A stretch of DNA of 14,260 bases, taken from Nitrososphaerota archaeon. Lineage in GTDB: Archaea > Thermoproteota > Nitrososphaeria > Nitrososphaerales > Gagatemarchaeaceae. The notes under the pieces are model-generated. The model was given only the letters and a program-made list of their open reading frames with translations. It did no database searches and was not told the origin of the DNA. The stretch spans positions 1-14,260 of the forward strand of contig JAPCJP010000042.1 of assembly GCA_027886885.1 (NCBI GenBank), in the 5' to 3' direction. The translations under genes were made by a program, and so were the position numbers. This document shows, in pieces, positions 476-13,789 of this stretch; position 1 is the first letter of the stretch; every line of letters starts with the position of its first letter.

Positions 476-628
476 ACCATCCGCTGAAATGGGTCAGACG
501 GTAAAAGCATTCCGGAAGAACCGAGTCTTTCCTTCTTGTCTAGCCGCAAGGACACCCCGCGGCCTGGGCATGAGTGCGACCGCTCCGTCACCGGTTGGCG
601 CTTATCTGCTCCGGCGTCCATGTCTGGT

Positions 629-793
629 ATGGCAGAATGCAAAATTTGTGAGAAGGAGGGGTCGATACTCTCGGTCACAGGGATGCAGATCCCCGTCGGA
701 GAAAGGTGCTACACGAAGCTGATTACCAGAGACGTGGTCTGGGACTCGGACACCAAGCTCGGGAAGCTAGAAGAGATGCTCGAGATAGGTTAA
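629..793 (+). CDS. Candidate small protein (54 aa), unknown function
   Basis: This is the 3' part of track ORF 536..793: MAECKICEKEGSILSVTGMQIPVGERCYTKLITRDVVWDSDTKLGKLEEMLEIG. CTTATCT at 601-607 lies 25 nt upstream of ATG 629, the same spacing and box type as other genes here. An alternative ATG is at 620. No recognisable domain; it has a CxxC plus one further Cys. Confidence 0.3.
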   Translation: MAECKICEKEGSILSVTGMQIPVGERCYTKLITRDVVWDSDTKLGKLEEMLEIG

Positions 794-885
794 GAGCTAC
801 CTCCTGATTCACCATGGTCTGACGGCCGGTCAAGGAACGGTCGTGGGACCCTTTCGCATAGGGTTCGTTGCGCCATTGACAGGTT

Positions 886-1854: not shown

Positions 1855-1874
1855 GATAATGAGGGTAGTTGCGT

Positions 1875-1882
1875 GCTAAAAG
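1875..1882 (-). promoter_or_regulatory. TATA-like box for the 322-aa ORF
   Basis: CTTTTAGC on the minus strand, about 24 nt upstream of ATG 1854. Confidence 0.4.
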
Positions 1883-1892
1883 GAGTTCTGAA

Positions 1893-1917
1893 GGGTTCAT
1901 CGCGCCTGAGCCGGGGA
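1893..1917 (+). repeat. Intergenic conserved motif, copy 1
   Basis: GGGTTCATCGCGCCTGAGCCGGGGA. It lies in the divergent promoter region between the TATA-like boxes at 1875-1882 (-) and 1945-1952 (+). Confidence 0.8.
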
Positions 1918-1944
1918 GGAAGGACCTGTGGCTTCAAAATAGGC

Positions 1945-1952
1945 GTAAATAT
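1945..1952 (+). promoter_or_regulatory. TATA-like box for the 113-aa ORF
   Basis: GTAAATAT follows an A-rich stretch (CAAAATAGG) and is centred 27 nt upstream of TTG 1976. Confidence 0.4.
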
Positions 1953-1975
1953 CTGCTACCTAGTCGTCATACGAC

Positions 1976-2317
1976 TTGGACAGCCAACGCAGTTGGGCGA
2001 TCATCGGCGCCAACCTCGGCAAGCTCGTGGAGTTGATGCTGACCGTCCCGAAGGGGACTTCGGTCGACGTCTTCTGTGATCCGACCGGCAAGATTCTCTC
2101 ATTCTCCGGCCCTTCGGGTCCAGCGAATCTCAAACTCTGCGCAGTGAGCCCACCCGACCTGGATGGGAGCTACGGCGTTCACCCGCAGGGCAGCGGCTTC
2201 GTTAACGACGATGGAGAGGAGATACCGAAGGACCAGCTACCGGCTTACCTCGTCAAGTATATCGAGGGGGCGAGGGATGGAGGGGCTGAGTGGGGATGGG
2301 AGTTCAAGCTTCCTTGA
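1976..2317 (+). CDS. Hypothetical protein (113 aa)
   Basis: The ORF has a TTG start at 1976, 27 nt downstream of the centre of GTAAATAT (1945-1952). An alternative ATG is at 2036. It is convergent with the nitroreductase gene across a 16-nt gap. I recognise no motif. Confidence 0.5.
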   Translation: MDSQRSWAIIGANLGKLVELMLTVPKGTSVDVFCDPTGKILSFSGPSGPANLKLCAVSPPDLDGSYGVHPQGSGFVNDDGEEIPKDQLPAYLVKYIEGARDGGAEWGWEFKLP

Positions 2318-2333
2318 ACCGTCCGAATTAGAC

Positions 2334-3977
2334 TCAGCGGCTGATTGAACCGGCCGCCATCTGTTCTCTGGTCAGCCTCTTCGGGAGCACCCTTCCGAAC
2401 CTCGCCCTGTAGCCGGGGACCCCGATGCCGAGCGCCATCATAGGGGTCATCTTGGATGCGCTGGGAGAAAAGAACTCGGTCACCTGGTCATCGTAGAACG
2501 TCGTTCCCGATGCTCCCATGCCCTGCGCATAGCTCGCCAGGTACATCCTCCCCGCCGCCACGCCGGCCTCGAATTGGGCGGCTCTGTACCCCCGGTCTCC
2601 GAGGAGGCGCAGGTCTTCACCTAGCTCGGTCATCAGGAAGAGCACGGCGCTCGCGCCGGTGAAGAGGGGCTGGCCGAGGCAGAGATAACCGCCCACATCT
2701 CTGAACTCACCCGACCTCAGCTGCTCCAGGGAGCCGGAGGCGCGGTCGAGGCGGTAGCTCCCGTTGGGCAGGCCCTTCACCGCGTTGGAGATCAGATATG
2801 TTTCCAGTAGGGTCTCCCGGGAAGGCAGGCCCAGCGGCACGCCCCTGGTGGAGTAATAGAGCACGTTCGACAGCTGCTCGTATGTTATCGGCTCGGGAGA
2901 GAACCTCCGGGTCGAGCCTCTCCTCAGGATAGCCTGGGCGAGGTCGGGTCCTTCGTCCGGCCTTTGCAACGTCCGCTCCAGCGGATAGCTTCGGTCGGAA
3001 AGGGGCGCGGTGGGGCTGGGTGCTCTCTCCTCCCGCGACTTGGTCCATGTTATCACCTCGCTGAAATCACGCAGGCCGGAGGCCTCGTGCGCTTCCCACA
3101 CATCGGGAGATTCTACCTCGGTCCTGGAGAGCGGGAGGAAGTCTGGGTCGATGGGGGGTGGGAGTTCGTCAGGAGACCTTCCACCGGCGGGCTGGCCGGA
3201 CGCGCTGGCGGACATCCCCAGCGGGCATATCGCGATCGCAGCCTCCTTCCTCGCCCTCAAGCCGAGGAGCCTGTTGACGGCTTCGTCCTCGAAACCGAGG
3301 ACCACGGACGAGCGAAGCCCAGCCGAGCTGGCCGTCGCGAGGAGGTTTGCCGCGATGACCCCACCGTCCCAGAACCAATGTCTGTACGAGCGCGCTTGAT
3401 ACTTCCATGAGTTCCTCCACGCCATCGAGGTGAGAACTATGGATGCGGGCGCTGCGGAGATGTCGGGGCGTAGTCCGGCGTAAGAGGACAGCGTCCTCGT
3501 CCAGTCTCCGCCTCTTAGCCGGGAGAGCGAGAAATCACCGGGAGAGAAGTGATACACGCCCGCTTCAAGACCCTCGAGCTTCTTGCAGACGACGTACAGC
3601 TCGATGGGGTATAGCGCTCCCGTCGCCGGGGCTGCCCTGAAGTAGAACGTCCCCCGTCCCTGGACCTTGACCTCGCGGGTTATCCCTGCGGAGAAGAAGA
3701 GGAGCTCCGCCAGGGTATCGACGCCCATGGCGGCTGAATCCTTGTCCTTTGGAACGGTGCTGATGGCAATGAGAGCGTTGAGTGCCGGCTTGAGAAAGTC
3801 TGTTGGAAGGTCCTGGAGGGGCAGTGCCGTATACACTTTGAAAGGGCTCGGTTTGTTATCCCAGTCCAGATAGTGTCCCGAGGTCCTCACGCTGACCTCG
3901 GAGTGCTTGGTGGCTTCGTGGTACTCTGACGCCTTGCTCCCCGGTCCGTTCATGTTGGAATCGGGTGGCGCGATCAT
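2334..3977 (-). CDS. SagB-type dehydrogenase / nitroreductase-family protein with two tandem nitroreductase-like halves (547 aa)
   Basis: The N-terminus has SEYHEATKHSE, GALYPIELYVV and GVYHFSPGDF, which are typical of the SagB-type dehydrogenase domain. The C-terminal half has an FMN-nitroreductase signature, RRGSTRRFSPEPITYEQL ... GYRAAQFEAGVAAGRMYL ... GTTFYDD. An alternative start, ATG 3953 (MNGPGSK), lies 25 nt downstream of CTTTATGA (rc of 3974-3981). Confidence 0.85.
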   Translation of the reverse strand: MIAPPDSNMNGPGSKASEYHEATKHSEVSVRTSGHYLDWDNKPSPFKVYTALPLQDLPTDFLKPALNALIAISTVPKDKDSAAMGVDTLAELLFFSAGITREVKVQGRGTFYFRAAPATGALYPIELYVVCKKLEGLEAGVYHFSPGDFSLSRLRGGDWTRTLSSYAGLRPDISAAPASIVLTSMAWRNSWKYQARSYRHWFWDGGVIAANLLATASSAGLRSSVVLGFEDEAVNRLLGLRARKEAAIAICPLGMSASASGQPAGGRSPDELPPPIDPDFLPLSRTEVESPDVWEAHEASGLRDFSEVITWTKSREERAPSPTAPLSDRSYPLERTLQRPDEGPDLAQAILRRGSTRRFSPEPITYEQLSNVLYYSTRGVPLGLPSRETLLETYLISNAVKGLPNGSYRLDRASGSLEQLRSGEFRDVGGYLCLGQPLFTGASAVLFLMTELGEDLRLLGDRGYRAAQFEAGVAAGRMYLASYAQGMGASGTTFYDDQVTEFFSPSASKMTPMMALGIGVPGYRARFGRVLPKRLTREQMAAGSISR

Positions 3978-4100
3978 AAAGAAGGTTCCGCCCTTTGGGT
4001 TTTGCCTGATTCCCCAGGCCTGTTATTCTCCTACTCGTAAACCGACTCTGCGGGTCCAGTGAGCTTCCCCGGATTGCCCGCGTCCGTCGGAACGTTCTCA

Positions 4101-4304
4101 CTATGGCGACTTTTCTTCTTCCCGGTCTTCAATCTCCTCTGACTCGTGCTCCTCGGACTCCTCTTCGGTCTCATCCTCCATCTCTTCGTCCTCTGCCTCT
4201 TCTACCGACTCGACGTCGGGTTCTGCATCTTTCTCGTGCTCTTGCTCTATCGCCTCAGCTTCTTCCTTTGATTCCTTGACGTCGTCATTGCTCAACGCGG
4301 CCAC
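4101..4304 (-). CDS. Hyper-acidic small protein (67 aa, mostly Glu/Asp)
   Basis: GTG start at 4304 and TAG at 4101 followed directly by TGA. Sequence: MAALSNDDVKESKEEAEAIEQEHEKDAEPDVESVEEAEDEEMEDETEEESEEHESEEIEDREEEKSP. ATAAATA (rc of 4328-4334) is centred 27 nt upstream of the GTG. Low complexity makes the coding call less certain. Confidence 0.55.
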   Translation of the reverse strand: MAALSNDDVKESKEEAEAIEQEHEKDAEPDVESVEEAEDEEMEDETEEESEEHESEEIEDREEEKSP

Positions 4305-4327
4305 TGAGGAAACTCAGGTTCACCCGG

Positions 4328-4334
4328 TATTTAT
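4328..4334 (-). promoter_or_regulatory. TATA-like box for the acidic-protein gene
   Basis: ATAAATA on the minus strand, centred 27 nt upstream of GTG 4304. Confidence 0.45.
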
Positions 4335-4368
4335 GCCGTGAAACTGCGGTCGATTACGCCCATGTGTA

Positions 4369-4393
4369 GGGTTCATTGCGCATCCGCCTGGGA
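4369..4393 (+). repeat. Intergenic conserved motif, copy 2
   Basis: GGGTTCATTGCGCATCCGCCTGGGA, preceded by CATGTGTA. It is 59 nt downstream of the vapC stop and 65 nt upstream of the acidic-protein GTG. Confidence 0.85.
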
Positions 4394-4451
4394 TAATCGC
4401 CCACACGTTGGGCTATAGTGCAAGATGAGCGGTAATTGGAGGCACAGGTCC

Positions 4452-4898
4452 CTATACTCTTCTAGGGAGGTCCTTGATTGCTACGATGATATCCGAGTCG
4501 TACCCGTTTTCTTGCAGAAAGCTTTTCAGTTCTTTGTCTAGAGACAGAAAAAGCATCCCCGAGTCGGCGGCGGTAGCATAGAGTATGTTGTCGATGTTGT
4601 CCTTGTGCCCCTTGCTGCGCAGTTCGAGCGCGAGGTGGATCGCGCTAGAGGACGGAGCGACCCACTTGTATGTTCCCGAGGCGAACAGACTTTTGATGCC
4701 CATCCCGACCGCCGCGTCGTCTATTTTCTTGGACTTGCCGAGAAGCCCTAGTATCTCGACGAAGCTTACGTGGGAGCAGCAGAGTGCCGTTCGTTGCCTG
4801 ATGGCTCCAAGCGTTTCAAGGTCTTTCGAGCTGATCTCCTCGACCTCTACGCCGAGCGTGGGAAGCAAGAAGGAAGTGTCCAACAAGATCTCAGGCAT
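4452..4898 (-). CDS. vapC: PIN-domain ribonuclease toxin, VapC family
   Basis: 148 aa. The N-terminal MPEILLDTSFLL carries the PIN Asp at position 7. Further conserved acidic positions are E48 (FVEILG), D112 (ATAADSG) and D121 (LSLDKEL). Its ATG overlaps the stop of the upstream antitoxin gene (ATGCCTGA, 4891-4898). Confidence 0.9.
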   Translation of the reverse strand: MPEILLDTSFLLPTLGVEVEEISSKDLETLGAIRQRTALCCSHVSFVEILGLLGKSKKIDDAAVGMGIKSLFASGTYKWVAPSSSAIHLALELRSKGHKDNIDNILYATAADSGMLFLSLDKELKSFLQENGYDSDIIVAIKDLPRRV

Positions 4899-5127
4899 AC
4901 AGCTCAGACTGCTCTTTTTCTGATTCCGACTCGATCTCTCTTGCGGTGACCTTCATCCATTTTTTTGAGCGCAGGGCGACCTCGATCGGGTCGGGCAGCG
5001 GCTCGACGACCAGTTTGCCGTCCTCTATCTCGTATCTTACCCTCTGTCCTTCCTTGAGTCCAAGGCGGCTTACGAGGTCTTTCGGCGGGTAGAGAGCAAA
5101 CTTCTTGGCGACCTTTCCCTCGCTCAT
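4891..5127 (-). CDS. vapB: AbrB/SpoVT-family antitoxin, VapB-type
   Basis: MSEGKVAKKFALYPPKDLVSRLGLKEGQRVRYEIEDGKLVVEPLP is a swapped-hairpin AbrB/MazE-like DNA-binding domain, followed by an acidic tail. There is an 8-nt overlap with vapC. The track extends the ORF to TTG 5160; I prefer ATG 5127. Confidence 0.85.
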   Translation of the reverse strand: MSEGKVAKKFALYPPKDLVSRLGLKEGQRVRYEIEDGKLVVEPLPDPIEVALRSKKWMKVTAREIESESEKEQSELYA

Positions 5128-5197
5128 GTGATTACCGGGTAATCGATGATATCCTGGCAAATAAGCTTTACCCGGTCATTTGAGTTTACCCTGTATA

Positions 5198-5222
5198 ACG
5201 TTCATTGCGCCTTCGCCGGGAA
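5198..5222 (+). repeat. Intergenic conserved motif, copy 3
   Basis: ACGTTCATTGCGCCTTCGCCGGGAA, preceded by CTGTATA. It lies in the divergent region between vapB and the YVTN gene. Confidence 0.85.
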
Positions 5223-5297
5223 TGACCTCTCATGCGTCATGGGTTCGTCCTGGTCGATGACGCAAACTGGCGGGCGCTCTGAGACGCTTCCGAAGTC

Positions 5298-5304
5298 TTA
5301 AATC
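5298..5304 (+). promoter_or_regulatory. TATA-like box for the YVTN operon
   Basis: CTTAAAT, centred 34 nt upstream of TTG 5335. Confidence 0.4.
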
Positions 5305-5334
5305 GAACATCTTCCGATAGAATCATCGAGAACT

Positions 5335-6612
5335 TTGCCGGTTTCATATCGCGGGTTCATCCGCAAGACATCCGTCATGATTCTACTTGTCCTCTTAGTC
5401 TTAGGTTCGGCTTTGGTTGTTCCTTTCGCCAGGGCCCAGACCGGTGTGGCGACCGTAAGCGTACCGGGTACACCCCAGAGCCTCGCCTACGATTCAGGAA
5501 AGGGCGAGGTCTTCGTAATAGATTTGGGCGCCAGGGGCTCCGTCCTATCCGACGCCACCAATACCGTCGTCGCGAACCTTACCCTACCCGCTGGAAGCAG
5601 CCCCGAGGGTGCTATCTACGATTCAGGAAAGGGTGAGGTCTTCGTCGCCGATAGCGGTAACGCCGCTGTCTCCGTGATATCCGACTCGACGAACAAAGTC
5701 ATCGCCAACGTGGGCGTTGGAGGTACCCCCGACGGGTTGGCGTACGACTCCGCCAAGGGGGAAGTGTTCGTGGCAAACGGTCTCGATGACACCCTTTCCG
5801 TCATTTCCGACGCCACCAATACCGTCATCGCGAACGTAACCCTTCCCACAGGGAGCTCCCCCGAGGGCCTGGCATACGACCCCGCAAAGAGCGAAGTGTT
5901 CGTGGCGGATAATGGTGCGGGCAATGTCTCGGTGGTATCAGACTCCACCAACGGTGTCGTCGCGAACGTGGTCACCTATGGTAGCCCTACGGGCCTTGCC
6001 TACGACCCAGCAAAGGGCCAAGTGTTTGTGGACAATTTTGGCGACGGTTTCGCCGTGATATCAGACGCTAGCAACGCGGTCGTCGCGAACGTGGTCTTGC
6101 CTGCAGGGGGGAGCGTCGGGTCTGTAGCCTACGACTCCGCCAAGGGGGATGTAATCGTAGGAAACTACGGGTCGAACACGATCTCCGCGGTATCTGACAG
6201 CAGCGACAAGATAGTAGCGAACGTCACGGTAGGAAGCGAACCCTATGATGTAGCCTACGACCCTGGGAAGGGCGAAATCTTCGTAGCCAATAGTGGCAAT
6301 TCCACTGTCTCCGTGGTACCAGATGCCGCACTGTCGTCAACGACCTCGAGCAGCTCGAGCACCTCGACCACATCCACCCCAGTGAGCTCCACGTCGACCG
6401 CCACGAGCGCACCGACTTCGTCCACTGCGGCCAGCAGTGTCACGAGCTCCAGTTCAACGACGGCGCAGACCTCCACAACAAGCTCGACGGGTGGGGGAGG
6501 GGGAGTGCCGGAGTTTCCCTACCAGTTCTTTGTGGCGGCGCTCTTCACCGTTCTCTTGACAGCGACTTATCTTCTAGTTCGGCGTCGCACTTCATTCGGG
6601 CGCCTAGAGTAA
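5335..6612 (+). CDS. YVTN-family 7-bladed beta-propeller surface protein with a Ser/Thr-rich linker and a PEF-CTERM-like C-terminal sorting signal
   Basis: The signal peptide is MPVSYRGFIRKTSVMILLVLLVLGSALVVPFARA/Q with a TTG start; the internal ATG at 5377 would lose the basic n-region. There are seven repeats of about 42 aa, P.GLAYD..KGEVFVA......VSVISD.TN.V.ANV. A roughly 55-aa S/T tract is followed by GGGGG-VPEFP, a TM helix and RRR. CTTAAAT at 5298-5304 lies upstream. Confidence 0.9.
   Translation: MPVSYRGFIRKTSVMILLVLLVLGSALVVPFARAQTGVATVSVPGTPQSLAYDSGKGEVFVIDLGARGSVLSDATNTVVANLTLPAGSSPEGAIYDSGKGEVFVADSGNAAVSVISDSTNKVIANVGVGGTPDGLAYDSAKGEVFVANGLDDTLSVISDATNTVIANVTLPTGSSPEGLAYDPAKSEVFVADNGAGNVSVVSDSTNGVVANVVTYGSPTGLAYDPAKGQVFVDNFGDGFAVISDASNAVVANVVLPAGGSVGSVAYDSAKGDVIVGNYGSNTISAVSDSSDKIVANVTVGSEPYDVAYDPGKGEIFVANSGNSTVSVVPDAALSSTTSSSSSTSTTSTPVSSTSTATSAPTSSTAASSVTSSSSTTAQTSTTSSTGGGGGVPEFPYQFFVAALFTVLLTATYLLVRRRTSFGRLE
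5473..6330 (+). repeat. Intragenic tandem repeats with a period of about 126-129 nt, encoding the YVTN blades
   Basis: The similarity is visible at DNA level. CTACGATTCAGGAAAGGGCGAGGTCTTCGT (5487-5516) matches CTACGATTCAGGAAAGGGTGAGGTCTTCGT (5616-5645) at 29 of 30 positions. GACGCCACCAATACCGTC(G/A)TCGCGAAC recurs near 5551 and 5811. Confidence 0.85.
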
Positions 6613-6620
6613 GAGAGGCT

Positions 6621-6628
6621 AGGAGAGG
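6621..6628 (+). promoter_or_regulatory. Shine-Dalgarno-like site for the downstream membrane-protein gene
   Basis: AGGAGAGG lies 9 nt upstream of ATG 6638, inside the 25-nt gap after the YVTN stop. This implies co-transcription. Confidence 0.5.
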
Positions 6629-6637
6629 ATTGGAAAG

Positions 6638-7219
6638 ATGAGAAAGCGGACGGTAATCATAGGTCTGATCTTACTGGTCATCGGGATAGCCTTCGTGGCT
6701 GGCGGGGTAGCTGGCCTCAGAGGCACCACCAGCGCGATATCCACCTTCACTCAGCCCAAAACAGGCGAATACGTCTCCTCTGAGGTGGTCCTGAACTCCA
6801 CTTCCACTTTGGTCGTAAGGTCGCCTTCCTCGACCGGAGGGCTCGTCCCGGCGCAGTCATTGAGTGAAGTGAATCAGACGAGTCTTGCGACGTACGCCCT
6901 TGCTGCAAACTCAACGAGGGGAGGGTCCGCGAGCTACGTCGGGCTCAAGGGAGGAGATTACTACTATGTCATCTTCACGTCAAGCCAGCCAACCACCACG
7001 ATAATAGTCACTGGAGACCTCGCCAGGACTATCGGGTCTGGGATCCTCGCGCTCATTGGCGGCGTCCTCTTCCTCGCGGGATTGATAGTGACCATAATCG
7101 GAGCAATCAGGAAGAGCGACAAGCCGAAGCAACCGCCCGGCGTGACCGATGCCGATTACTATTCGAAGCGCCAGGATAGCCCTCCGCCACCACCAAACAC
7201 AACCGCATTGGAGACCTAG
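6638..7219 (+). CDS. Hypothetical bitopic or two-TM membrane protein (193 aa) with a Pro-rich C-terminal tail
   Basis: N-terminal TM TVIIGLILLVIGIAFVAGGVAGL, an extracytoplasmic region of about 110 aa, a second TM IGSGILALIGGVLFLAGLIVTIIGAI, then RKSDKPKQPP...SPPPPPNTT. It is probably in an operon with the YVTN gene. Confidence 0.75.
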   Translation: MRKRTVIIGLILLVIGIAFVAGGVAGLRGTTSAISTFTQPKTGEYVSSEVVLNSTSTLVVRSPSSTGGLVPAQSLSEVNQTSLATYALAANSTRGGSASYVGLKGGDYYYVIFTSSQPTTTIIVTGDLARTIGSGILALIGGVLFLAGLIVTIIGAIRKSDKPKQPPGVTDADYYSKRQDSPPPPPNTTALET

Positions 7220-7220
7220 G

Positions 7221-7314
7221 ACGTTCGGCGACCTAGCGGCCGTCGAATCCGGAGGATGATCACCCACACCTTGCTCTACAGTTAGCCTCACCAGCCAGGC
7301 AGGTCGCCGAATGT
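7221..7314. repeat. Inverted repeat in a convergent intergenic region; function unknown, possibly a bidirectional terminator-like hairpin
   Basis: TTCGGCGACCT (7224-7234) is the exact reverse complement of AGGTCGCCGAA (7301-7311). As RNA the stem can extend to 14 bp with one G-U. The loop is 66 nt. It lies between the stops at 7219 (+) and 7347 (-). Confidence 0.35.
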
Positions 7315-7346
7315 AGACTGTTCTTGCGTGTCATAGGTCGATGGTG

Positions 7347-8615
7347 TCAAGACGCGGCCTGCAGCTGATAGATGTGACCGTCGGAGGAAAGGGCATAGAG
7401 GTTGCCCGATGAATCGAGACCGAACGAGTACATCGAAGACGTGCCCACGACCAGCTCAGCGTGATATGTGACCTGTGTACCGTTGTATTCAAGGGCCCAG
7501 ACGTTGCCAGTGCAGTAGTCGCCATACACGTAGGCACCGTCCAAAGAAGGGATCCCCTTTCCCGTGTAGACGTAGCCGCCTATTATCGCGCAATCTCCCT
7601 GCACGTGAGGATAGGCGATGACAGGGAGTTTCAGCCCCGATTCGTCACAACCGGACGGCGGCGAGTAGCATGAGAATCCTTCCATTATGTTCCACCCATA
7701 ATTCCCACCCTTGGTGACCAGGTCTACCTCCTCGAACCTGTCTTGTCCGACGTCCCCGACCCAGAGTTGACCTGCCGGGTCGAACGAGAACCGCCAGGGG
7801 TTGCGCAGACCATAGGCCCAGATCTCGCCTCGGTCCCCGGCTACCCGGACGAAGGGATTATCGGAGGGAATGGAATACGGCGCCTCTGCCGAGGCGTTCC
7901 CCACGTCGATTCGAAGGACCTTTCCGAGGAGGGTGGACATGTTCTGCCCGTTCCCCATCGGGTCTCCTTCCGAGCCTCCGTCTCCGACTCCTACGTACAG
8001 GTCCCCGTCGGGTCCGAACGCCAGCATGCCGCCATTGTGATTGTTGAACGCCGGCGGTTGCGAGATCTGCAGGATGACCAGCTCGGTGCTGGGGTCGACC
8101 ATGCCCGCGTTGCTGGCGTCGACCGTGAACCTTGCCACTACCGCGTGTCTGCCTGCCCCGGCGGCCGTGTAATACACGTAGAGGTATCCGTTTGCCGCGA
8201 AGTCAGGGTCGAACGCCAACCCGAGCAATCCCTGCTCGTTCCCGGAGGAGTTGACGAGGTTCCTGAGGTCGAGGAATGTGGCCGTCGAGCTCACGTTCCG
8301 TTCGTCCGGGAACTCCAGTATCTCACCCACCTGAAGCACCAAGAACATCCTGTCCGTCCCATCGTCGGGGGAGGTCAGAAAGACCATGCGATTGAATGAT
8401 AGGTAGGGGAATGCCGCAGCAAGCGTCATCGAGCCGTTCCCGGGCAGTATGGAGGAGTTCGAGAGGCGGGTCGAGGAAGTGGTGCTGACGATGCCGGTTG
8501 TTGAGCTCACGCTGCTCGTCCGCGCGCCCCCGTTCGACGCGACGAGGTAGAGAGCGACGGATGAAACCAGGATGATGATGACGAGGACTGCGGCGAGGGT
8601 TCGCTTCGAGGACAA
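7347..8615 (-). CDS. PQQ-dependent sugar dehydrogenase (soluble glucose/sorbosone dehydrogenase family), membrane-anchored
   Basis: 422 aa with a TTG start. An N-terminal TM anchor (LAAVLVIIILVSSVALYLVA) is followed by an S/T-rich linker. The beta-propeller body has family signatures: GLLGLAFDPDF, HNGGMLAFGPDGDLYVGVGDGG, GKVLRID, YGLRNPWRFSFD and GGNYGWN. Confidence 0.9.
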   Translation of the reverse strand: MSSKRTLAAVLVIIILVSSVALYLVASNGGARTSSVSSTTGIVSTTSSTRLSNSSILPGNGSMTLAAAFPYLSFNRMVFLTSPDDGTDRMFLVLQVGEILEFPDERNVSSTATFLDLRNLVNSSGNEQGLLGLAFDPDFAANGYLYVYYTAAGAGRHAVVARFTVDASNAGMVDPSTELVILQISQPPAFNNHNGGMLAFGPDGDLYVGVGDGGSEGDPMGNGQNMSTLLGKVLRIDVGNASAEAPYSIPSDNPFVRVAGDRGEIWAYGLRNPWRFSFDPAGQLWVGDVGQDRFEEVDLVTKGGNYGWNIMEGFSCYSPPSGCDESGLKLPVIAYPHVQGDCAIIGGYVYTGKGIPSLDGAYVYGDYCTGNVWALEYNGTQVTYHAELVVGTSSMYSFGLDSSGNLYALSSDGHIYQLQAAS

Positions 8616-8673
8616 GGACTATGGATACTCCCGAGCGCGTTTCAGGTAAACAAGGGTATCGGCGAGGGATGGA

Positions 8674-8698
8674 GGGTTCATTGCGCCTCCGCCGGGAC
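8674..8698 (+). repeat. Intergenic conserved motif, copy 4 (consensus-like)
   Basis: GGGTTCATTGCGCCTCCGCCGGGAC. It ends 2 nt from the hydrolase stop codon (8700-8702) and starts 59 nt upstream of the PQQ-dehydrogenase TTG. Confidence 0.9.
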
Positions 8699-8699
8699 G

Positions 8700-9749
8700 T
8701 CAGCGGACCAGAGTCAGAAATCGTCGCGGATTATCGACGAGAATCCGGTCAATCGTTTCCTGGGTCATTCCCCTCCTTCGCATCAACGGCACCACGTTCT
8801 CGAGGATGTGGGCGTATCCGAACCCTCCATAGCAGTAGAGGGACTGCTTCTCGCAGATGTCCTGGGAGATCAGGATCCGGTCAGCGTAACCGGCGTCGAC
8901 GAGCTGCTTGACCATGTGGACACGCATCTGGTCGTTCGGGTCGGGGAAGGGCAGGTCTTGGAGGGTCCCGAAGTAGCCGAAGACGTCGAACTCGATGGTA
9001 GCGCCACGGTCCATGACCGCCTTCATCTGCGAGAGTTCCCCGATGGTGCGTTCAATGTGGGCTATTATGACCCGCTTCATGTCGGCGTGCTCCTCCTCGA
9101 GGACGTCGAGAATCAACTGCGGGTGTGCTGGGTTCCTCCCCGGGTGGACCATGAGCGCCGCCCCCGTCTCCAGCTGGGCCCTCGCGGCTCCCCGCAGGAC
9201 CTTCTCCTCGTTCGTCCCCCAGGGGTAGGTCGTCCCTATCTCTCCGATTATGCCTGCGCGCACTTGGGTGCCGTCCATGCCCACCGTGATGTCGCGCACG
9301 ATATCGGACCTGATGTCCTCGACCGACTTGCCGGCGACCTCAGGAGGATGGAACCTTGAGATGTAATACCCGGCTCCGGCGACGATGTTGAGCCCTGTGC
9401 GGAGGGAGAGCTCGCGGAGCGAGGTGGGTGCCCTTGCCAGCCCGATGGTGGTCACGTCCACGATGGTGTTGCCCCCGGCGTTCCTGAACCTCCGCGCCTC
9501 CTTCGCCATCATCTCCATGTCGTCGAGGTGGAGGTTGTCCAGGTTCCTCATGGCATCGCCCCTCACCCACCCCAGGTTGTCTAGGCCCAGCGGGGCTAAT
9601 GCCATCCTCCTCTTCACCGGGTCTTCGGGCGCGACGAAGTAGTGCGACGCGATATCCAGGAACAGGTGCTCGTGCATGAGGGTCGTGCCCAGCTCACTGG
9701 GTTCGACCGGCCCGAGGACGGTCTGGGCCTTGCCGGCGGGTCTGCTCAT
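8700..9749 (-). CDS. Phosphotriesterase-family (PHP/PLL-like) amidohydrolase-fold metallohydrolase
   Basis: 349 aa. LGTTLMHEHLFLD carries the HxH metal ligands. Further ligand-position residues are AGIIGEIG, ALMVHPG, IIAHIE and LISQDI. No signal peptide. CTTAAAT (rc of 9774-9780) is centred 28 nt upstream of ATG 9749. Confidence 0.92.
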   Translation of the reverse strand: MSRPAGKAQTVLGPVEPSELGTTLMHEHLFLDIASHYFVAPEDPVKRRMALAPLGLDNLGWVRGDAMRNLDNLHLDDMEMMAKEARRFRNAGGNTIVDVTTIGLARAPTSLRELSLRTGLNIVAGAGYYISRFHPPEVAGKSVEDIRSDIVRDITVGMDGTQVRAGIIGEIGTTYPWGTNEEKVLRGAARAQLETGAALMVHPGRNPAHPQLILDVLEEEHADMKRVIIAHIERTIGELSQMKAVMDRGATIEFDVFGYFGTLQDLPFPDPNDQMRVHMVKQLVDAGYADRILISQDICEKQSLYCYGGFGYAHILENVVPLMRRRGMTQETIDRILVDNPRRFLTLVR

Positions 9750-9773
9750 CTATGTGGATTGAGAGCCGCCGTG

Positions 9774-9780
9774 ATTTAAG
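9774..9780 (-). promoter_or_regulatory. TATA-like box for the phosphotriesterase-family gene
   Basis: CTTAAAT on the minus strand, centred 28 nt upstream of ATG 9749. Confidence 0.45.
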
Positions 9781-9806
9781 GTGACGCCATCTTCTCGCCT
9801 TGTATA

Positions 9807-9831
9807 GCGCCTATTGCGCCTCCCCTAGGGA
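9807..9831 (+). repeat. Intergenic conserved motif, copy 5 (5' part diverged)
   Basis: GCGCCTATTGCGCCTCCCCTAGGGA, preceded by CTTGTATA. It lies in the divergent region between the hydrolase and pLGIC genes, between their TATA-like boxes. Confidence 0.75.
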
Positions 9832-9853
9832 GAGTGTTCCTCGGCGGTCGCAG

Positions 9854-9860
9854 CTTATAT
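9854..9860 (+). promoter_or_regulatory. TATA-like box for the pLGIC gene
   Basis: CTTATAT, centred 31 nt upstream of ATG 9888. Confidence 0.45.
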
Positions 9861-9887
9861 CTCGGGTTGAGGACCGCGGAGACCCCG

Positions 9888-10883
9888 ATGCGCAGTCTGA
9901 AAATTGCAGCTCCTCTTGTGGCCGCTCTCCTGCTCGTGTCGTTCCTCGGCCTTGTCTCCCCCGCGCACGCCCAGACGCAGCCTCCCACCGAGGTCACCAT
10001 CGGAGCTTATGTGATAAACATCAGCGACTTTAACGTCGGACAAGGCACGTTCTCGGCGGACTTTTACCTCTGGTTCTCCTGGCAGGGAAACTGGACAGGT
10101 AGTTCGTCCTCCGCGGCGCCGCTGCCGAGCGATTTCGAACTCATGAACGGTTTCGTTAACAAAGCGACGCTCATCCAATCAAACCAGAACCTTAGCGGCG
10201 GCTACAACTACCTGATATATCGAATCCAGGCTTCCATGACAGACCCCGTCAACCTGCAGGACTATCCCTTCGACCACCACGACCTCACCATCGAGATCGA
10301 GGACCAGGACCACGATGTGACTTCGCTTGTCTACCTCCCCGATCAAGAGAGCCGCATCGACCAGCTGGTCGCTCTGCAGGGATGGCAGTTGCCGACGTCG
10401 CCGGCCGACGTCTACGTTGTGAATCATTTCTACAACACGACTTTTGGCGAGCCGGGTCAGAACTACACCGAGACCTACTCCAGGTTCATACTCTCTATCC
10501 CCATCGAGAGGCCGGTACTCTCCTCTGTCGTGGAGACCTTCGTCCCTATCATTCTCATCCTGATAGTCGCCATGATCTCTTTCCTCATCAAGCCAACCGA
10601 GTTCGGCTCGAGGTTGGGGCTGAACGTGACGACGCTGCTCACAGCGGTGGCGTTCCAGATCAATCTGACGGCGGGCATCCCTCAGTTCGGATTTCTTACG
10701 CTGGCAGACAGGTTGATGATCAGCCTCTATATCGTCCTGGTCTACTCGCTCCTCATGACGGTGAGCCTGGCGACCATAAAGGGCGAGAGGAGCGCGCGGG
10801 CGGTCAGACGCCTCAACGAGGCCAGCGCCATCATGGTGCCCCTCCTGATGGTGGGCCTGCTCGTCCTCGATTTTCTGCTTTGA
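9888..10883 (+). CDS. Prokaryotic pentameric ligand-gated ion channel (GLIC/ELIC-type, Cys-loop receptor superfamily) homologue
   Basis: Signal peptide MRSLKIAAPLVAALLLVSFLGLVSPAHA/Q. The extracellular domain has VTIGAYVINISDFNVGQGTFSADFYLWFSW. It also has LQDYPFDHHDLTIEIE, the FPFD loop signature without the two cysteines, as in bacterial members. Pre-M1 ERP is followed by M1 VPIILILIVAMISFLI, M2 RLGLNVTTLLTAVAFQINL, M3, a 14-aa M3-M4 loop and M4. The track start at 9834 is unlikely; CTTATAT at 9854-9860 is centred 31 nt upstream of ATG 9888. Confidence 0.85.
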   Translation: MRSLKIAAPLVAALLLVSFLGLVSPAHAQTQPPTEVTIGAYVINISDFNVGQGTFSADFYLWFSWQGNWTGSSSSAAPLPSDFELMNGFVNKATLIQSNQNLSGGYNYLIYRIQASMTDPVNLQDYPFDHHDLTIEIEDQDHDVTSLVYLPDQESRIDQLVALQGWQLPTSPADVYVVNHFYNTTFGEPGQNYTETYSRFILSIPIERPVLSSVVETFVPIILILIVAMISFLIKPTEFGSRLGLNVTTLLTAVAFQINLTAGIPQFGFLTLADRLMISLYIVLVYSLLMTVSLATIKGERSARAVRRLNEASAIMVPLLMVGLLVLDFLL

Positions 10884-10987
10884 GTGAACGCGTCAGTGGA
10901 GGATGGGAGTCAGTCCCGAAGACCGATTCGCCTTTCCCTTCGGAGTGACTCTTCCGGACCGGTTCCGGCGTGACGAGCCACGCACTG

Positions 10988-11012
10988 GGGTTCATTGCGC
11001 CTCCGCTGCATC
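10988..11012 (+). repeat. Intergenic conserved motif, copy 6
   Basis: GGGTTCATTGCGCCTCCGCTGCATC. Its first 19 nt are identical to copy 4. It lies in the convergent gap between the pLGIC stop (10883) and the stop at 11027. Confidence 0.9.
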
Positions 11013-11026
11013 CCAGTTTATTCCTC

Positions 11027-11329
11027 TTACACTGCGGAACCGACCACGGCGACGAGCATGAGAAAGGTCACGAGTGCGACGGCGAGAAAGGTTCCTGCGA
11101 TGAAACGGCCGAAACCGGCTTCAGACCTGCGGTAGTAAACCGTAATCGGGCTTACAACAAAGACCAAGACCAGATACAGCAGGACCAATTCAAAGAAGAA
11201 GCCAAGCTGATTGGGTCCTGCGTTGATAATCCTCCACCCCACAAGAACGAACGGTAGCGCCACGACGAATGCGATTGCGGATCCCAACTCGAATGGATTG
11301 GATATCGGCTTACGAAGGGGGACGCTCAT
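11027..11329 (-). CDS. Hypothetical small membrane protein (100 aa, about 3 TM)
   Basis: ATG 11329 to TAA 11027. Hydrophobic segments: AIAFVVALPFVLVGW, FFFELVLLYLVLVFVVSPI and FIAGTFLAVALVTFLMLVAVVG. No recognised family. Confidence 0.65.
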   Translation of the reverse strand: MSVPLRKPISNPFELGSAIAFVVALPFVLVGWRIINAGPNQLGFFFELVLLYLVLVFVVSPITVYYRRSEAGFGRFIAGTFLAVALVTFLMLVAVVGSAV

Positions 11330-11526
11330 TGCCTACAATGTCCAAGTTGTGGACCTGAGGTCTAGATAACGCTTGTTCTCCTGATTCACAGGGCTATTGG
11401 CAACTCAGTGAGTTAGAGGTGATTTCAACCGTTCCGCGAGAAGATGGTCACCCACGCGTTGGGTTCAGTCCTTGATCTACAGGCGTCGCGGAAAGGTTCG
11501 CCGCAGCCACGCCGAGCCCGATAGGT

Positions 11527-11658
11527 CTAGCCCTGATGCCTTGGCCGCCCCACAATACCAGTTCCGTTGCACTTCGGGCAAGGCGCACTCTGGCCTCCAC
11601 TCATCGCGATTCTGCCAGTACCTTTGCAGTTCGAACACGGTCCTGTTCCCACCGACAT
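11527..11658 (-). CDS. Candidate 43-aa zinc-finger micro-protein with two DnaJ-type CxxCxGxG motifs
   Basis: Too short for the ORF track. My own translation: MSVGTGPCSNCKGTGRIAMSGGQSAPCPKCNGTGIVGRPRHQG, from ATG (rc of 11656-11658) to TAG (rc of 11527-11529). GTAAAAGA (rc of 11682-11689) is centred 28 nt upstream. It overlaps track ORF 11477..11665 in another frame, and that ORF has no features. Confidence 0.3.
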   Translation of the reverse strand: MSVGTGPCSNCKGTGRIAMSGGQSAPCPKCNGTGIVGRPRHQG

Positions 11659-11800
11659 CGGGCATTTGTGGCCCTCAGCCCTCTTTTACGTGTTCCGCCG
11701 TCAGCGCCAGCGAGTTGGTAGTCAGGCCGCTAGCAACAGTTACCAAAACCGATTATTGACCTGGTGGCATTAGTCCATTGAAGGAACTTTAGACATGTAA

Positions 11801-11825
11801 GGGTCAATTGCGCCTCCGCGGGAGA
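11801..11825 (+). repeat. Intergenic conserved motif, copy 7
   Basis: GGGTCAATTGCGCCTCCGCGGGAGA, preceded by ACATGTAA. It ends 17 nt from the stop at 11842. Confidence 0.8.
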
Positions 11826-11841
11826 CACTAGGTGCCCTGAG

Positions 11842-12294
11842 TCATTCTCTTGCTGCTCTTAGGACTAGGTAATCTTGAATGGCGTCGTAGGAGAAGATCA
11901 GAGGGAATAGGGTGAAGGCGAACGAAAGAAAAACAAGTTGAAAGTACTCAAAGAACAGAAGAAATACCGCATATGCAACGGAGATCCCAATCAGTACCTG
12001 AGCGTAACCTGAGTTAAGGCCGAATTTCCTGTAAAAAGCCCTTTGGAATGGGTTGGCCTCTCCTTGAAATCCAACCTTGCTGATGTGAGATACGGTTAGC
12101 TCGTTCGCCACTAGGTTTGATGCTACGGATGCGAACAAGCTGACAGATAGAAGAACGAAAAAAATCTCCGGGTCTGAGCTGTAGAGCTGGTTCCATTTGG
12201 TAACGGATGCGATGCTGAGCGTGAAAGCGACGATGAAGACAGTTACGAAGTAGAATCGCTGTCTCTTCGACAGTCCTCGCTTTGTCTGCTCCAC
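11842..12294 (-). CDS. Hypothetical 4-TM membrane protein (150 aa) in a low-GC segment
   Basis: GTG start at 12294 and TGA at 11842. It has four hydrophobic helices, for example FYFVTVFIVAFTLSIASV and VLIGISVAYAVFLLFFEYF. GAAATAC (rc of 12320-12326) is centred 29 nt upstream. Hand-counted GC is about 47%. Confidence 0.7.
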   Translation of the reverse strand: MEQTKRGLSKRQRFYFVTVFIVAFTLSIASVTKWNQLYSSDPEIFFVLLSVSLFASVASNLVANELTVSHISKVGFQGEANPFQRAFYRKFGLNSGYAQVLIGISVAYAVFLLFFEYFQLVFLSFAFTLFPLIFSYDAIQDYLVLRAARE

Positions 12295-12416
12295 ACCAGT
12301 GTTTCTTGCGCGTTATCGGGTATTTCTTGATTACTGTAGAGATTGGCACGATGAGAGCGAGAGGGCGGAACGTCCCCCGGAAGCTCCACGGATGGAGGTC
12401 CGTTGCGCCCCGCTTG

Positions 12417-13754
12417 TCAATGGCCAACCGCCCCGGACACATCATCAGGCGTTGCAGGCAGCAGTTTGATTATCATCACTATGGTGATCACTGTAGCGGC
12501 AAGACTAGCGAGGATCGGGGCCCGAAAGCCCAACGTCTGGTAGAGGAAGCCGCCTATGATGGGCGCGGGAAAGGCCACCAAGCCCCGATACACCGCCAGC
12601 TTTCCGCCCAGGCTCCCCCTCTCTCCCGCCGGGGATCGCGTCATCACCAGAGACTGCTGGGCAGGCACCCATGTGGCTATCGAGATCCCAAAAAAGACCG
12701 AGAAGAGCACGAAGAGGAGTACCGAATTGGAGAGAGCCCACCCTGCCATCATTATGCACCCGAAGAGTTCCGAGATTGCCAGCGATTTGATGGGCCCGAC
12801 TCGAAGAAGCAGTCTTGTGGCTGGATACTGCGCCAGAATCGTGGCGATCGAGACCGTGCCTACGAGGACGCTGATGACATCGAGCGAATATCTGAACTGG
12901 GTCACCAGCATCCCATAGATGATCGTGGTCGTTATGCCAAATGCGAACGAGTCCATCGCAAAGGTCGCGAAGAAGCCCGAGAACCCCTTCGGGAGGGCGA
13001 GCGCCGTCCTGAACGAGAAGGCTGCCGCCGGTCTGGCGCTGGGACCCAACCCTGTCCTGGTCTCCCTGAGCTCTCTCAGGTAGAGGAGGAGGTCGACGGA
13101 CTCGAGGGCCTCCGCGATGCCGAATATCGCGAAATAGCCGACCCAGCCCACCAGGGGCCCCGCGGCGAAGGACATGAGCGCCCCCGAAGCGGTGCCCAGC
13201 AGGAATATGGTGCTGAAGGCGACGTGCATCTTGCTGGGCTCGAGGTTCACCGATTCCGCCACCATCGCCTGGGACGCGGGGCTGGACAGAGCGGAGAGGC
13301 CGTAGAGGAGGTACCCCACCAAAAGAGTCACGGGGTTGTGGGACAGGGCGGCCAGAAGGAAGAACGACATCGAGACTATCATCGTCACGCTCCCGGCGAC
13401 GACCACCACCTTCCTTCCGAAGATGTCAGCGTAGTGCCCGGCGAGCGGCTGTATGAGCGAGGAGGTGAGCCCGCTGAATCGGCCGCCGACAGCCTGGAGG
13501 ATTCCGAGCGTGGTGATGCCTAGTCCGATTCCCACAGTGAAGGGCTGAAGAAGGGTGTTCAGCATCCCGATGTACACACCAGATATGAGGCTCGTCAGCG
13601 CGATGACCCTCACGTTTCGGTCGAGCAGAAGGGCCCTGGACACTTTCAGGACGCCGTCGGTTCTTCCGCTCAAGCCACGCTCAACCCTCGGAGTGCGCAC
13701 CCCCATTTGACGGCAAATGAATCCATCGGCGCTACGAGCTTGGAAATCATCCAC
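12417..13754 (-). CDS. MFS (major facilitator superfamily) transporter
   Basis: 445 aa with about 12 hydrophobic helices. MFS motif A is present (LAGHYADIFGRKVVVV). GTG start at 13754, with an alternative ATG at 13706. The long + strand ORF 12282..13523 is its antisense shadow. Confidence 0.9.
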   Translation of the reverse strand: MDDFQARSADGFICRQMGVRTPRVERGLSGRTDGVLKVSRALLLDRNVRVIALTSLISGVYIGMLNTLLQPFTVGIGLGITTLGILQAVGGRFSGLTSSLIQPLAGHYADIFGRKVVVVAGSVTMIVSMSFFLLAALSHNPVTLLVGYLLYGLSALSSPASQAMVAESVNLEPSKMHVAFSTIFLLGTASGALMSFAAGPLVGWVGYFAIFGIAEALESVDLLLYLRELRETRTGLGPSARPAAAFSFRTALALPKGFSGFFATFAMDSFAFGITTTIIYGMLVTQFRYSLDVISVLVGTVSIATILAQYPATRLLLRVGPIKSLAISELFGCIMMAGWALSNSVLLFVLFSVFFGISIATWVPAQQSLVMTRSPAGERGSLGGKLAVYRGLVAFPAPIIGGFLYQTLGFRAPILASLAATVITIVMIIKLLPATPDDVSGAVGH

Positions 13755-13789
13755 GCGATCGGAAGATAGGTGTCAACCAAAATGTGTAA

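Follow-up and report, generated by a model that had tools for sequence, protein, structure and literature searches.

Tandem, or accretive, integration is represented by the genomic islands at tRNA and tmRNA genes, the tycheposons of Prochlorococcus, the accretion of integrative and conjugative elements (ICE) and cis-mobilizable elements (CIME), and the composite staphylococcal cassette chromosomes mec (SCCmec) at rlmH, while Xer-dependent systems include the integrative mobile elements exploiting Xer (IMEX) at dif and the pdif modules of Acinetobacter plasmids. The present study concerns a short motif that recurs, in a single orientation, in a stretch of 14,260 nucleotides from a Nitrososphaerota archaeon of the Gagatemarchaeaceae (GenBank assembly GCA_027886885.1, contig JAPCJP010000042.1, positions 1 to 14,260; hereafter the window) and in related genomes, the loci of which are referred to by L-numbers. 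It appears quite probable that the motifs are copies of an attachment (att) site, i.e. the joints between independently acquired cassettes of a very large array that site-specific recombination has assembled. Canonical hairpin attC sites characterise the archaeal integrons known from the literature (Ghaly et al. 2022, PMC9668308), and the "additive" flexible genomic islands (PMC4033161) form a part of the tandem-accretion class used here for comparison. In SAR11, a hypervariable island (HVR2) is located directly after the 23S rRNA gene, without repeats at its junctions (PMC2217521). A survey of integrated elements in thaumarchaea covers tRNA, intergenic and protein-gene targets as well as some tandem insertions, with no arrays of the present kind turning up when it was searched by terms (PMC6563490).

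Compared with sedentary chromosomal integrons—the Vibrio super-integron in particular—the system is alike in its same-orientation arrays, which comprise tens or even hundreds of cassettes with a length of about 1 kb each, in the high similarity of the sites within a genome, in a toxin–antitoxin-rich cargo of unrelated genes, the order of which varies between relatives, and in an exchange point near one end of the site, so that most of the site travels with one cassette. It differs in that the site is a copy of the 23S trailer, of a duplex type, 24–26 bp long and without a hairpin, and in that the array is anchored at the rRNA operon and not at an intI–attI–Pc platform; moreover, 36% of the genes among the matches listed are antisense, the cassettes have their own promoters, and no IntI was found. 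The cassettes of the array may partly be transcribed by read-through from the rRNA promoter, much as integron cassettes use Pc. Concerning tandem accretion, the likeness consists in att repeats that duplicate the flank or the 3′ end of their target gene, in their direct orientation, in the intact gene at the island end, in units lacking an integrase that are mobilised in trans, and in target fragments varying in length from element to element. The differences are the target—the 23S trailer, which was not found reported in the literature—the number of units (dozens sampled per genome, in arrays of up to ~110 kb, versus 2–5) and their size (1–2 genes versus 5–100 kb). The dif and pdif modules share with the array the small units without a recombinase and the simple sites of ~28 bp with an arm–6-bp spacer–arm layout, but their arms are AT-rich, palindromic and unrelated in sequence, and the pdif sites alternate in orientation, whereas the copies here are all direct. 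HVR2 of SAR11 is likewise a large hypervariable island right after the 23S rRNA gene; it is, however, of the replacement type, homologous recombination in the rRNA genes on either side being responsible for its exchange, and has neither repeated junctions nor cassettes. The system thus behaves like a sedentary chromosomal integron and is built like a tandem accretion of att sites, without being a member of the integron family. No earlier description of an rRNA-anchored cassette array with the 23S trailer as its target was found in the literature on integration at the 23S 3′ end or on such arrays.

The window contains seven strong copies of the motif, all on the plus strand and all intergenic, at the positions given for them in an earlier note made from the sequence alone (Table 1). 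The 17-mer consensus TTCATTGCGCCTCCGCC has, with up to three mismatches allowed, six matches, all on the plus strand, against 0.07 expected by chance and with none of 200 shuffles reaching six, and the exact 11-mer ATTGCGCCTCC occurs four times (8680, 9813, 10994 and 11807), again always on the plus strand, with copies 4 and 6 having the 19 nt GGGTTCATTGCGCCTCCGC in common. In a position weight matrix (PWM) scan of both strands, the seven copies scored between 31 and 45 bits, no other site exceeding 7.4, and there was no reverse-strand copy in the window and no strong copy within a gene. A profile hidden Markov model (HMM) built solely from copies of other genomes recovered all seven copies (E 4e-12 to 0.01) plus an eighth at 854–874; on the minus strand of the window it found nothing significant. 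What the earlier note had claimed for the pattern as such—seven intergenic copies in one orientation, 19 identical nt in copies 4 and 6, an exact 11-mer in four of them, no good copy in coding sequence or in reverse, and a recurrence beyond chance—is borne out by the PWM, the k-mer searches and the independent profile. The TGTA(T/A)A-like bases that had been noticed in front of the motif are also real, being the next bases of the rRNA trailer (minus strand, …CCCTATGCATGGC).

Read on the minus strand (CCCCGGCGGAGGCGCAATGAACCC), the motif is the 3′ trailer of the 23S rRNA gene. In the rRNA sense the site runs …GAAATG|CCCC-GGCGGA-GGCGCAATGAACCC-TATGCATGGC, and the trailer across the end of the 23S gene is …GUGAAUGAAAUG|CCCCGGCGGAGGCGCAAUGAACCCUAUGCAUGGC. 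According to Rfam, a full or partial large-subunit (LSU) rRNA gene ends 3–5 nt from a motif copy in L027, L076, L077, L071 and L074, and a 23S gene likewise abuts the motif in L001 and L106, i.e. in seven loci altogether. About 13% of the copies (41 unique ones) then carry a further conserved stretch, element B, in nested lengths of 20 to more than 100 nt, which was never seen without the motif among the copies examined. Element B is the reverse complement of the archaeal 23S rRNA 3′ end, as established by the Rfam match at other loci, and exhibits compensatory changes in two small helices (e.g. GCC-CGAA-GGC, GCTC-TTGC-GAGC and GACC-TTGC-GGTC). The element B of the window, joined to copy 2, aligns to the genuine 23S 3′ end of L076 (…CCCAACGTGTGGGTGATTAT|CCCCGG…), with the match to the profile of motif plus element B (A+B) covering 4338–4442 (E 1e-19), and copy 2 has a 70-nt extended match to copies in L089, L076, L099, L074 and L043. 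The view of the earlier note that the motif fits no known element therefore has to be divided: it is indeed not a tRNA fragment, but the statement was wrong in spirit in so far as it implied no fragment of an RNA gene, because the motif is a copy of the 23S trailer—a piece of the rRNA operon—and copy 2 adds ~30 nt of the 23S end.

In archaea, the pre-rRNA processing stem contains a bulge-helix-bulge that is cut by the splicing endonuclease EndA. Within the pre-23S processing stem the trailer makes up the 3′ strand, and in this respect the native copy of the motif conforms to the known arrangement, the difference being the hundreds of array copies without a 5′-strand partner. The trailer of L027 pairs over ~50 nt with the internal transcribed spacer (ITS) just upstream of the 23S gene (cofold –96 kcal/mol), and the centre of that stem may be drawn as a bulge AAG, a helix GCGC:GCGC and a bulge AAU, that is, a 3-4-3 bulge-helix-bulge; it should be noted that this is a compatible reading and not a proof, the minimum free energy structure drawing a slightly different pairing. 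The 5′-strand version of the stem is confined to genuine operons and just the 3′ strand has been multiplied. The array copies, since their 5′-strand partner is absent, cannot form the bulge-helix-bulge and are DNA repeats of it.

In order to describe the motif beyond the window, one genome per species was scanned for the 17-mer GTTCATTGCGCCTCCGC, which returned at least 120 blocks of 8 kb; the copy numbers per genome and the array limits are lower bounds, and the counts given in this paragraph apply to the matches listed. Bacterial matches were single copies, and most matches originated from metagenome-assembled genomes (MAGs) of soil and peat Nitrososphaerota, including "Ca. Gagatemarchaeum stordalenia"; the MAGs carrying the motif are Gagatemarchaeaceae-like and come from soil and peat. 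When mismatches were allowed, up to 11 copies per 8 kb were present in the Nitrososphaerota blocks. All 48 blocks with at least three copies have them in a single orientation (27 all plus, 21 all minus, none mixed). The median spacing of copies is 938 bp, 78% of the intervals contain 1–2 open reading frames (ORFs), and 175 of the 227 copies lie outside ORFs, although ORFs cover 86% of the DNA. The genes between the copies are found on both strands, 207 in the rRNA sense versus 118 antisense (64% and 36%, respectively).

Several blocks are adjacent on long contigs, namely CAWCYD010000003.1 (1872–1904 kb), CAVVLY010000009.1 (32–144 kb), OY969807.1 (1536–1592 kb) and CAVRAG010000008.1 (1472–1568 kb), the first of them offering a contiguous 32 kb with ~40 copies on one strand and genes on both. 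At four of the six loci with a genuine 23S gene, the array begins directly at the 23S 3′ end: CAVVLY010000009.1 (from 36 to at least 112 kb), OY969807.1 (from 1592 to 1536 kb or below), CAWFZY010000006.1 and CAWFOU010000007.1. On these four contigs every copy is oriented as the native trailer, with the array running away from the 23S gene. An intact gene at one end followed by direct repeats is seen in L027 with L035, in L076 leading to L110, in L074 leading to L075, and in L077. The arrays span from at least 30 to ~110 kb, at approximately one copy per 0.9 kb. On the complete chromosome OY970160.1 (L001), the native site stands alone, without any further copies in the 8-kb block, and appears to be unoccupied. 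As for the window, the counterparts of its cassettes are located 50–75 kb from the 23S gene in the related contig CAVVLY010000009.1, and by analogy its array would be anchored at an rRNA operon that lies further right on the minus strand.

Segments of the window recur in related genomes, and the matches start and stop at motif copies. Both window 11801–12413, with an ORF of 150 aa, and window 12397–13765, with a transporter of the major facilitator superfamily (MFS), are present in L110, albeit in swapped order, and the two alignments overlap solely in 17 nt of a decayed motif at 12396; there, the sequence to the left of …CCTCCGC tracks one cassette and the sequence to the right tracks the other. 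On the evidence of these alignments, 12396–12420 is a true junction. A strict flank test of 324 copies, demanding at least 120 nt of homology abutting the motif, yielded 11 cases on the left, 30 on the right and three pairs with both sides, the homology being restricted to one side in 35 of 38 strict flank pairs; a looser version gave 30 left-only, 63 right-only and again three pairs with both sides. A comparison of the gene content between copies in relatives, proposed in the earlier note, finds whole cassettes reordered at the motif. Of the readings put forward there, the one in which the motif is a site of recombination or a junction at the borders of gene cassettes receives strong support from the homology breaks, the reordering and the arrays with up to ~40 same-orientation copies per 32 kb. 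Junctions may also disappear: the nitroreductase-like gene (window 2329–4017) is a motif-bounded single-gene unit in L078, both copies having been lost in the window (2317-2334 and 4017-4100), and because of this loss window 1893–4369 is to be seen as a fusion of approximately three former cassettes.

The exchange point itself could be placed approximately. Counted along the 17-mer used for the scan (GTTCATTGCGCCT|CCGC), variants of the motif go with the cassette on the left up to about position +12 and with the one on the right from about position +13 onwards, and this switch, confined to ~5 nt, points to an exchange within TCCGCC (GGCGGA in the rRNA sense). The consensus around it, cATTGCgCC–TCCGCC–GGgGCAtTt, has a 6/9 symmetry of the arms about a 6-bp spacer, and imperfect inverted arms with such a spacer would correspond to the layout of a tyrosine-recombinase core site. 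Conservation is confined to ~26 nt.

The following mechanism is proposed. The native 23S trailer would serve as attB, and small circular DNA units would carry a copy of the site, in some of them lengthened by an arm taken from the 23S 3′ end. A site-specific recombinase would insert the circles at the native site or at any earlier copy, by conservative recombination within GGCGGA, each insertion leaving two direct copies. By repeated insertion, excision between any two copies and re-insertion, an array of units of ~0.9 kb—with 1–2 genes in either orientation and their own promoters—would grow and reshuffle from the end of the rRNA operon. The layout of the site suggests that the exchange is catalysed by a dedicated enzyme, probably a tyrosine recombinase, and the mechanism would further involve circular intermediates and current activity. 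In its widest form the proposal says that soil Thaumarchaeota of the Gagatemarchaeaceae type possess a counterpart of the chromosomal integron, a platform for gene capture anchored at the 23S 3′ processing stem, in which a putative site-specific recombinase inserts, excises and reorders cassettes of ~1 kb at a non-hairpin site of 24–26 bp, in arrays of up to ~110 kb (roughly 5% of the genome), the cassettes perhaps being partly read through from the rRNA promoter; for this full version we consider the chances evenly balanced.

Several observations weigh against the array being the product of a dedicated site-specific recombination system. With regard to the site, its right arm is poorly conserved, with little information beyond GGGG, and the exchange point is based on few variable positions, homologous recombination between 25-bp repeats being the alternative. 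Some junctions have decayed or fused (e.g. at window 2329/4017 and 12396), and part of the array may therefore be fossil. The rRNA operon of the window itself was not seen, and the scan counts and array extents are, as mentioned above, lower bounds only. There are also exceptions in orientation: the array copies on CAVSWV010000004.1 (8–40 kb) are inverted relative to the adjacent rRNA operon; inverted copies flank one pyrroloquinoline quinone (PQQ)-type β-propeller gene in L009 (4348-5865), no other pair of mixed orientation having been seen, and inversion may act on it; and an NHL/YNCE β-propeller gene has opposite orientations to the motif in the window (5288-6598) and in L034 (3792-5091), at 81% identity. 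The three exceptions suggest occasional inversion between sites. On CAVSWV010000004.1, the native trailer (L106, position 115) is on the plus strand and the copies 8–24 kb away (L032 and L054) are on the minus strand, opposite to the four contigs described above.

A further objection is that no recombinase could be tied to the site among the array ORFs, array ends and integrase contexts examined. A phmmer search of the 672 array ORFs with approximate XerD, IntI1 and γδ-resolvase queries, together with a family HMM, yielded two integrases only; 30 large array ORFs inspected by Pfam included one insertion sequence (IS) and no recombinase, and no integrase was found at the rRNA-proximal array end. 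Tyrosine recombinases of the family PF00589 with a C-terminal zinc ribbon are located 0.1–1.9 kb from a terminal motif copy and transcribed towards it in L002, L123, L066 and L121. The order in L123 is core genes, an intron-containing tRNA, the integrase, a gene with a DnaJ domain and then seven motif copies in 9 kb, no motif being present in the 10 kb of core genes upstream of the integrase. The nine genomic contexts of homologous integrases, however, offer a mixed picture, with and without the motif: integrases with 54–89% identity (L122, L124, L125 and L126–128) have no motif nearby, most of them adjoining tRNA genes in the manner of ordinary integrated elements; such motif-less homologues are as common as those beside a motif, and the association is weak because two of the four cases were found inside motif loci and L123 is the orthologue of L002. 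Furthermore, the ~480 kb of array DNA contain just two integrase genes and the window has none, a scarcity suggesting that the cassettes are non-autonomous. No different repeat was found downstream of the motif-less integrases of L124 and L125. A viral attP was also considered, but the six matches in the IMG/VR scan are due to chance, their flanks being unlike the motif.

The alternative that survives best, although we consider it unlikely, is that the copies are passive scars, i.e. remnants of many larger integrase-bearing elements, proviruses or plasmids, which integrated at the 23S 3′ end and decayed by deletion, so that the cassettes are immobile and the reordering is due to homologous recombination between the 25-bp repeats. 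Tandem re-use of att sites by tyrosine-recombinase elements is known in archaea from the survey mentioned above (PMC6563490), and the decayed and fused junctions, the rarity of integrases in the arrays and the nested lengths of the 23S fragments, which resemble the attP extents of different elements, would all agree with it. Random decay of elements of 10–50 kb would not, however, be expected to leave units as uniformly small as those among the matches listed (median 0.9 kb; 78% with 1–2 ORFs). Hundreds of copies from several genera have kept the core of the site almost unchanged, one and the same single-gene unit can be met in various genomes and surroundings with a site at either border, and the variant switch is limited to ~5 nt, all of which weighs against passive scars.

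Far less likely is a role of the motif as punctuation of transcription or RNA processing—half of a bulge-helix-bulge, a terminator, an insulator or an operator separating units downstream of the very strongly transcribed rRNA operon, in line with the first and third hypotheses of the earlier note. At its native place the sequence functions within the pre-rRNA processing stem, transcription from the rRNA promoter could conceivably run on into the array given that 64% of the array genes (207 versus 118 among the matches listed) are in the rRNA sense, and five window copies lie 39–71 nt upstream of minus-strand start codons; yet the complementary 5′ strand is absent from the arrays, no conserved fold and no Rfam match were found around the copies, and the orientation is the same regardless of the strand of the neighbouring gene, with copies lying also in convergent gaps. 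Punctuation would, in addition, leave the homology breaks at the motif and the 23S 3′ fragments unexplained. For the same reasons, i.e. uniform orientation despite genes on two strands, copies in convergent gaps and the spread of 39–71 nt, the operator or upstream activating site marking transcription-unit boundaries that the earlier note had suggested is not upheld. A promoter element was rejected as well: TATA boxes are ~26–28 nt upstream of the leaderless starts, with the motif at no fixed distance from these starts; its closeness to TATA boxes is explained by compact cassettes carrying their own promoters. Also the Shine–Dalgarno-and-ATG look of the minus strand (GGAGG-N5-ATG), taken up in the earlier note as a separate finding, is a part of the rRNA processing stem without evidence of a small gene; the peptides starting at the motif ATG have 9–57 aa and are unrelated past the first residues, and a small gene is dismissed because two of the seven copies (5 and 7) lack the ATG and the peptides downstream show no conservation. 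Besides being a junction between cassettes, the motif may nevertheless have a role in regulation or at the RNA level.

With respect to secondary structure, the complement search and the folding of 80–259 copies revealed no hairpin or attC-like partner beyond shuffled controls; the DNA folding z-scores were +0.7 to –1.1 for six window copies, and –3.0 for copy 6 through idiosyncratic local pairing. The absence of a hairpin, as stated in the earlier note, is thereby confirmed. A canonical integron with attC sites recombined by an IntI-type integrase can be dismissed as most improbable. Short cassettes, with toxin–antitoxin pairs and accessory genes among them, do lie between sites of one orientation, and integrons are on record for Archaea, Thermoproteota included (PMC9668308); yet neither a hairpin nor an imperfect inverted repeat is present (the longest motif complement within ±110 nt of 259 copies equals that of shuffled controls), there are no R″/R′ boxes, the exchange is not at G|TTRRRY but within GCGCCT|CCGCC, the site has 24–26 bp versus 57–141 nt for attC and derives from the rRNA trailer, genes occur on both strands, and in place of an intI/attI/Pc platform, which was not found, four arrays begin at the 23S gene. 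The end of a miniature inverted-repeat transposable element (MITE), a repetitive extragenic palindrome (REP) or an IS is not supported either, there being no inverted partner, a single orientation in 48/48 loci among the matches listed and ~26 nt conserved; the earlier note had likewise set REP and MITE aside. No known RNA was recognised in the window, either as an Rfam match at E≤1 or as a tRNA. An origin from a tRNA fragment was tried owing to a resemblance to a T-arm and acceptor and to the tRNA upstream of the L123 integrase, but it was rejected on account of the wrong orientation and the lack of any direct repeat of the tRNA in question.

If the motifs are indeed joints between cassettes inserted at the 23S trailer, one of the most abundant archaeal groups of acidic soils and peat would keep a large and rapidly changing reserve of accessory genes—including transporters, hydrolases and toxin–antitoxin pairs as well as nucleases and ATPases of the defence type—in an integron-like array with a kind of site different from that of bacterial integrons. 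Cassette arrays would then have evolved more than once, and the hairpin attC would not be required for them. The end of a single, essential and highly transcribed rRNA operon is a target that can never be lost, and insertions there would sit downstream of the strongest promoter of the cell. In practical terms, the motif would offer a simple tag by which the flexible genes of uncultured Thaumarchaeota could be picked out of metagenomes, as well as a candidate short recombination site for archaeal genetics, and the arrays would explain the poor assembly of rRNA-proximal regions in these MAGs.

The features of the window, together with those of other loci mentioned in the text, are collected in Table 1.

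Table 1 Motif copies, element B, candidate junctions and cassettes of the window, with RNA features of other loci
Feature	Coordinates	Strand	Remarks
Motif copy 1	1893..1917	+	nhmmer E 2e-5; between the 322-aa ORF cassette and the next unit; rRNA sense = – strand
Motif copy 2	4369..4393	+	nhmmer E 4e-12; element B attached
Element B	4394..4425	+	reverse complement of the last ~27–30 nt of 23S rRNA (ATAATCGCCCACACGTTGGGCTATAG…), joined to copy 2
Motif copy 3	5198..5222	+	upstream of vapB; PWM and profile
Motif copy 4	8674..8698	+	consensus sequence; PWM, 11-mer and profile
Motif copy 5	9807..9831	+	left arm divergent (GCGCCTATTGCGCC); nhmmer E 0.01; found via the 11-mer
Motif copy 6	10988..11012	+	convergent gap; right arm replaced (…CCGC|TGCATC)
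Motif copy 7	11801..11825	+	left boundary of the 150-aa-ORF cassette; L110 homology begins inside this copy
Weak eighth copy	854..885	+	ATAGGGTTCGTTGCGCCATTGAC; directly after the stop codon of the 322-aa ORF; PWM 5.0 bits; nhmmer E 0.003 (854–874)
Decayed ninth copy	12396..12420	+	AGGTCCGTTGCGCCCCGC|TTGTCAA; junction between the 150-aa-ORF and MFS cassettes; profile E 1.3, i.e. below significance
Possible decayed junction and 23S-like fragment (tentative)	7235..7290	+	…CCGGAGGATGATCACCCACACCTTGCTCTACAG; by eye against element B; not significant by profile
Possible decayed junction and 23S-like fragment (tentative)	11418..11470	+	…GATGGTCACCCACGCGTTGGG; nhmmer E 0.13–1.2
PIN-domain toxin and MazE/AbrB-type antitoxin (vapBC-like) cassette	4394..5197	–	Pfam PF01850, PF04014; bounded by copies 2 and 3
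Phosphotriesterase-family hydrolase, single-gene cassette	8699..9806	–	PF02126, E 3e-76; copies 4 and 5
Pentameric ligand-gated-channel-like, single-gene cassette	9832..10987	+	weak PF02932/PF02931; copies 5 and 6; strand opposite to most cassettes
150-aa membrane ORF, single-gene cassette	11826..12395	–	88% identity to L110 2521–3139; different array position there
MFS-transporter cassette	12421..13765	–	PF07690; 87.5% identity to L110 3216–4597; on the other side of the 150-aa cassette there
Intron-containing tRNAs	L123 9818-9930; L125 9819-9930; L126 1028-1143; L128 1484-1599		
RF00028-like inserts	L027 4391-5061, 5695-6305; L076 1683-2331, 3553-3685; L077 6619-6752; L071 3019-3128; L106 ~140-1794		

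The single genes and small units that the earlier note had seen bracketed by consecutive copies—vapBC, the hydrolase and the channel—hold as cassettes with Pfam assignments. Other products of the window comprise a nitroreductase-like protein, an NHL β-propeller, a sorbosone-dehydrogenase-like protein and a methyltransferase, whereas the cargo of other arrays includes HicAB, MazE/PIN, TIR, an Mrr nuclease, AAA ATPases, nSTAND, methyltransferases and one IS. Such a mixed accessory and defence content is typical of integron and cassette arrays. The tentative junction at 7235..7290 would split the unit 5198–8674 into a cassette with the NHL propeller and a 193-aa ORF and another one with GSDH. Concerning the second tentative junction, the L034 homology of window 11478–11822 starts just past it.

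Some of the cargo deserves a separate mention. The channel-like protein of 349 aa (window 9834-10883) weakly resembles pentameric ligand-gated ion channels in both of their domains (PF02931 and PF02932, each scoring under its cut-off) and is unusual as an archaeal cassette cargo. Window 11478-11800 exhibits 73% identity to L034 5939–6321 and contains short ORFs only (62 and 95 aa), with no Pfam match; the cassette may thus encode a small protein or be non-coding. In L080 (3323-4489), an array contains an inserted IS-type transposase, DDE_Tnp_IS240/rve, that has a SWIM finger.

In the surroundings of the integrases, an intron-containing tRNA stands directly upstream of the zinc-ribbon integrase and the DnaJ-domain gene; it was missed by ARAGORN at default settings and found with the intron option. 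The upstream neighbours, i.e. subunits of Mrp/Nuo-type antiporters and a polyprenyl synthase, are conserved between L123 and L125, and the variable region downstream of the motif-less integrase of L125 contains a perfect tandem duplication of a 55-nt unit (20588-20697). As to the 23S loci, a stretch similar to a tRNA 3′ half (GGGTTCAAATCCCGGCGACCGCCCA) comes after the native trailer on OY970160.1 (L001 849-960). Several of the 23S genes have inserts resembling group I introns (Rfam RF00028, 26–32 bits, below the gathering score; Table 1), and in L106 ~1.65 kb separates the end of the Rfam LSU match from the true 3′ end and the trailer.

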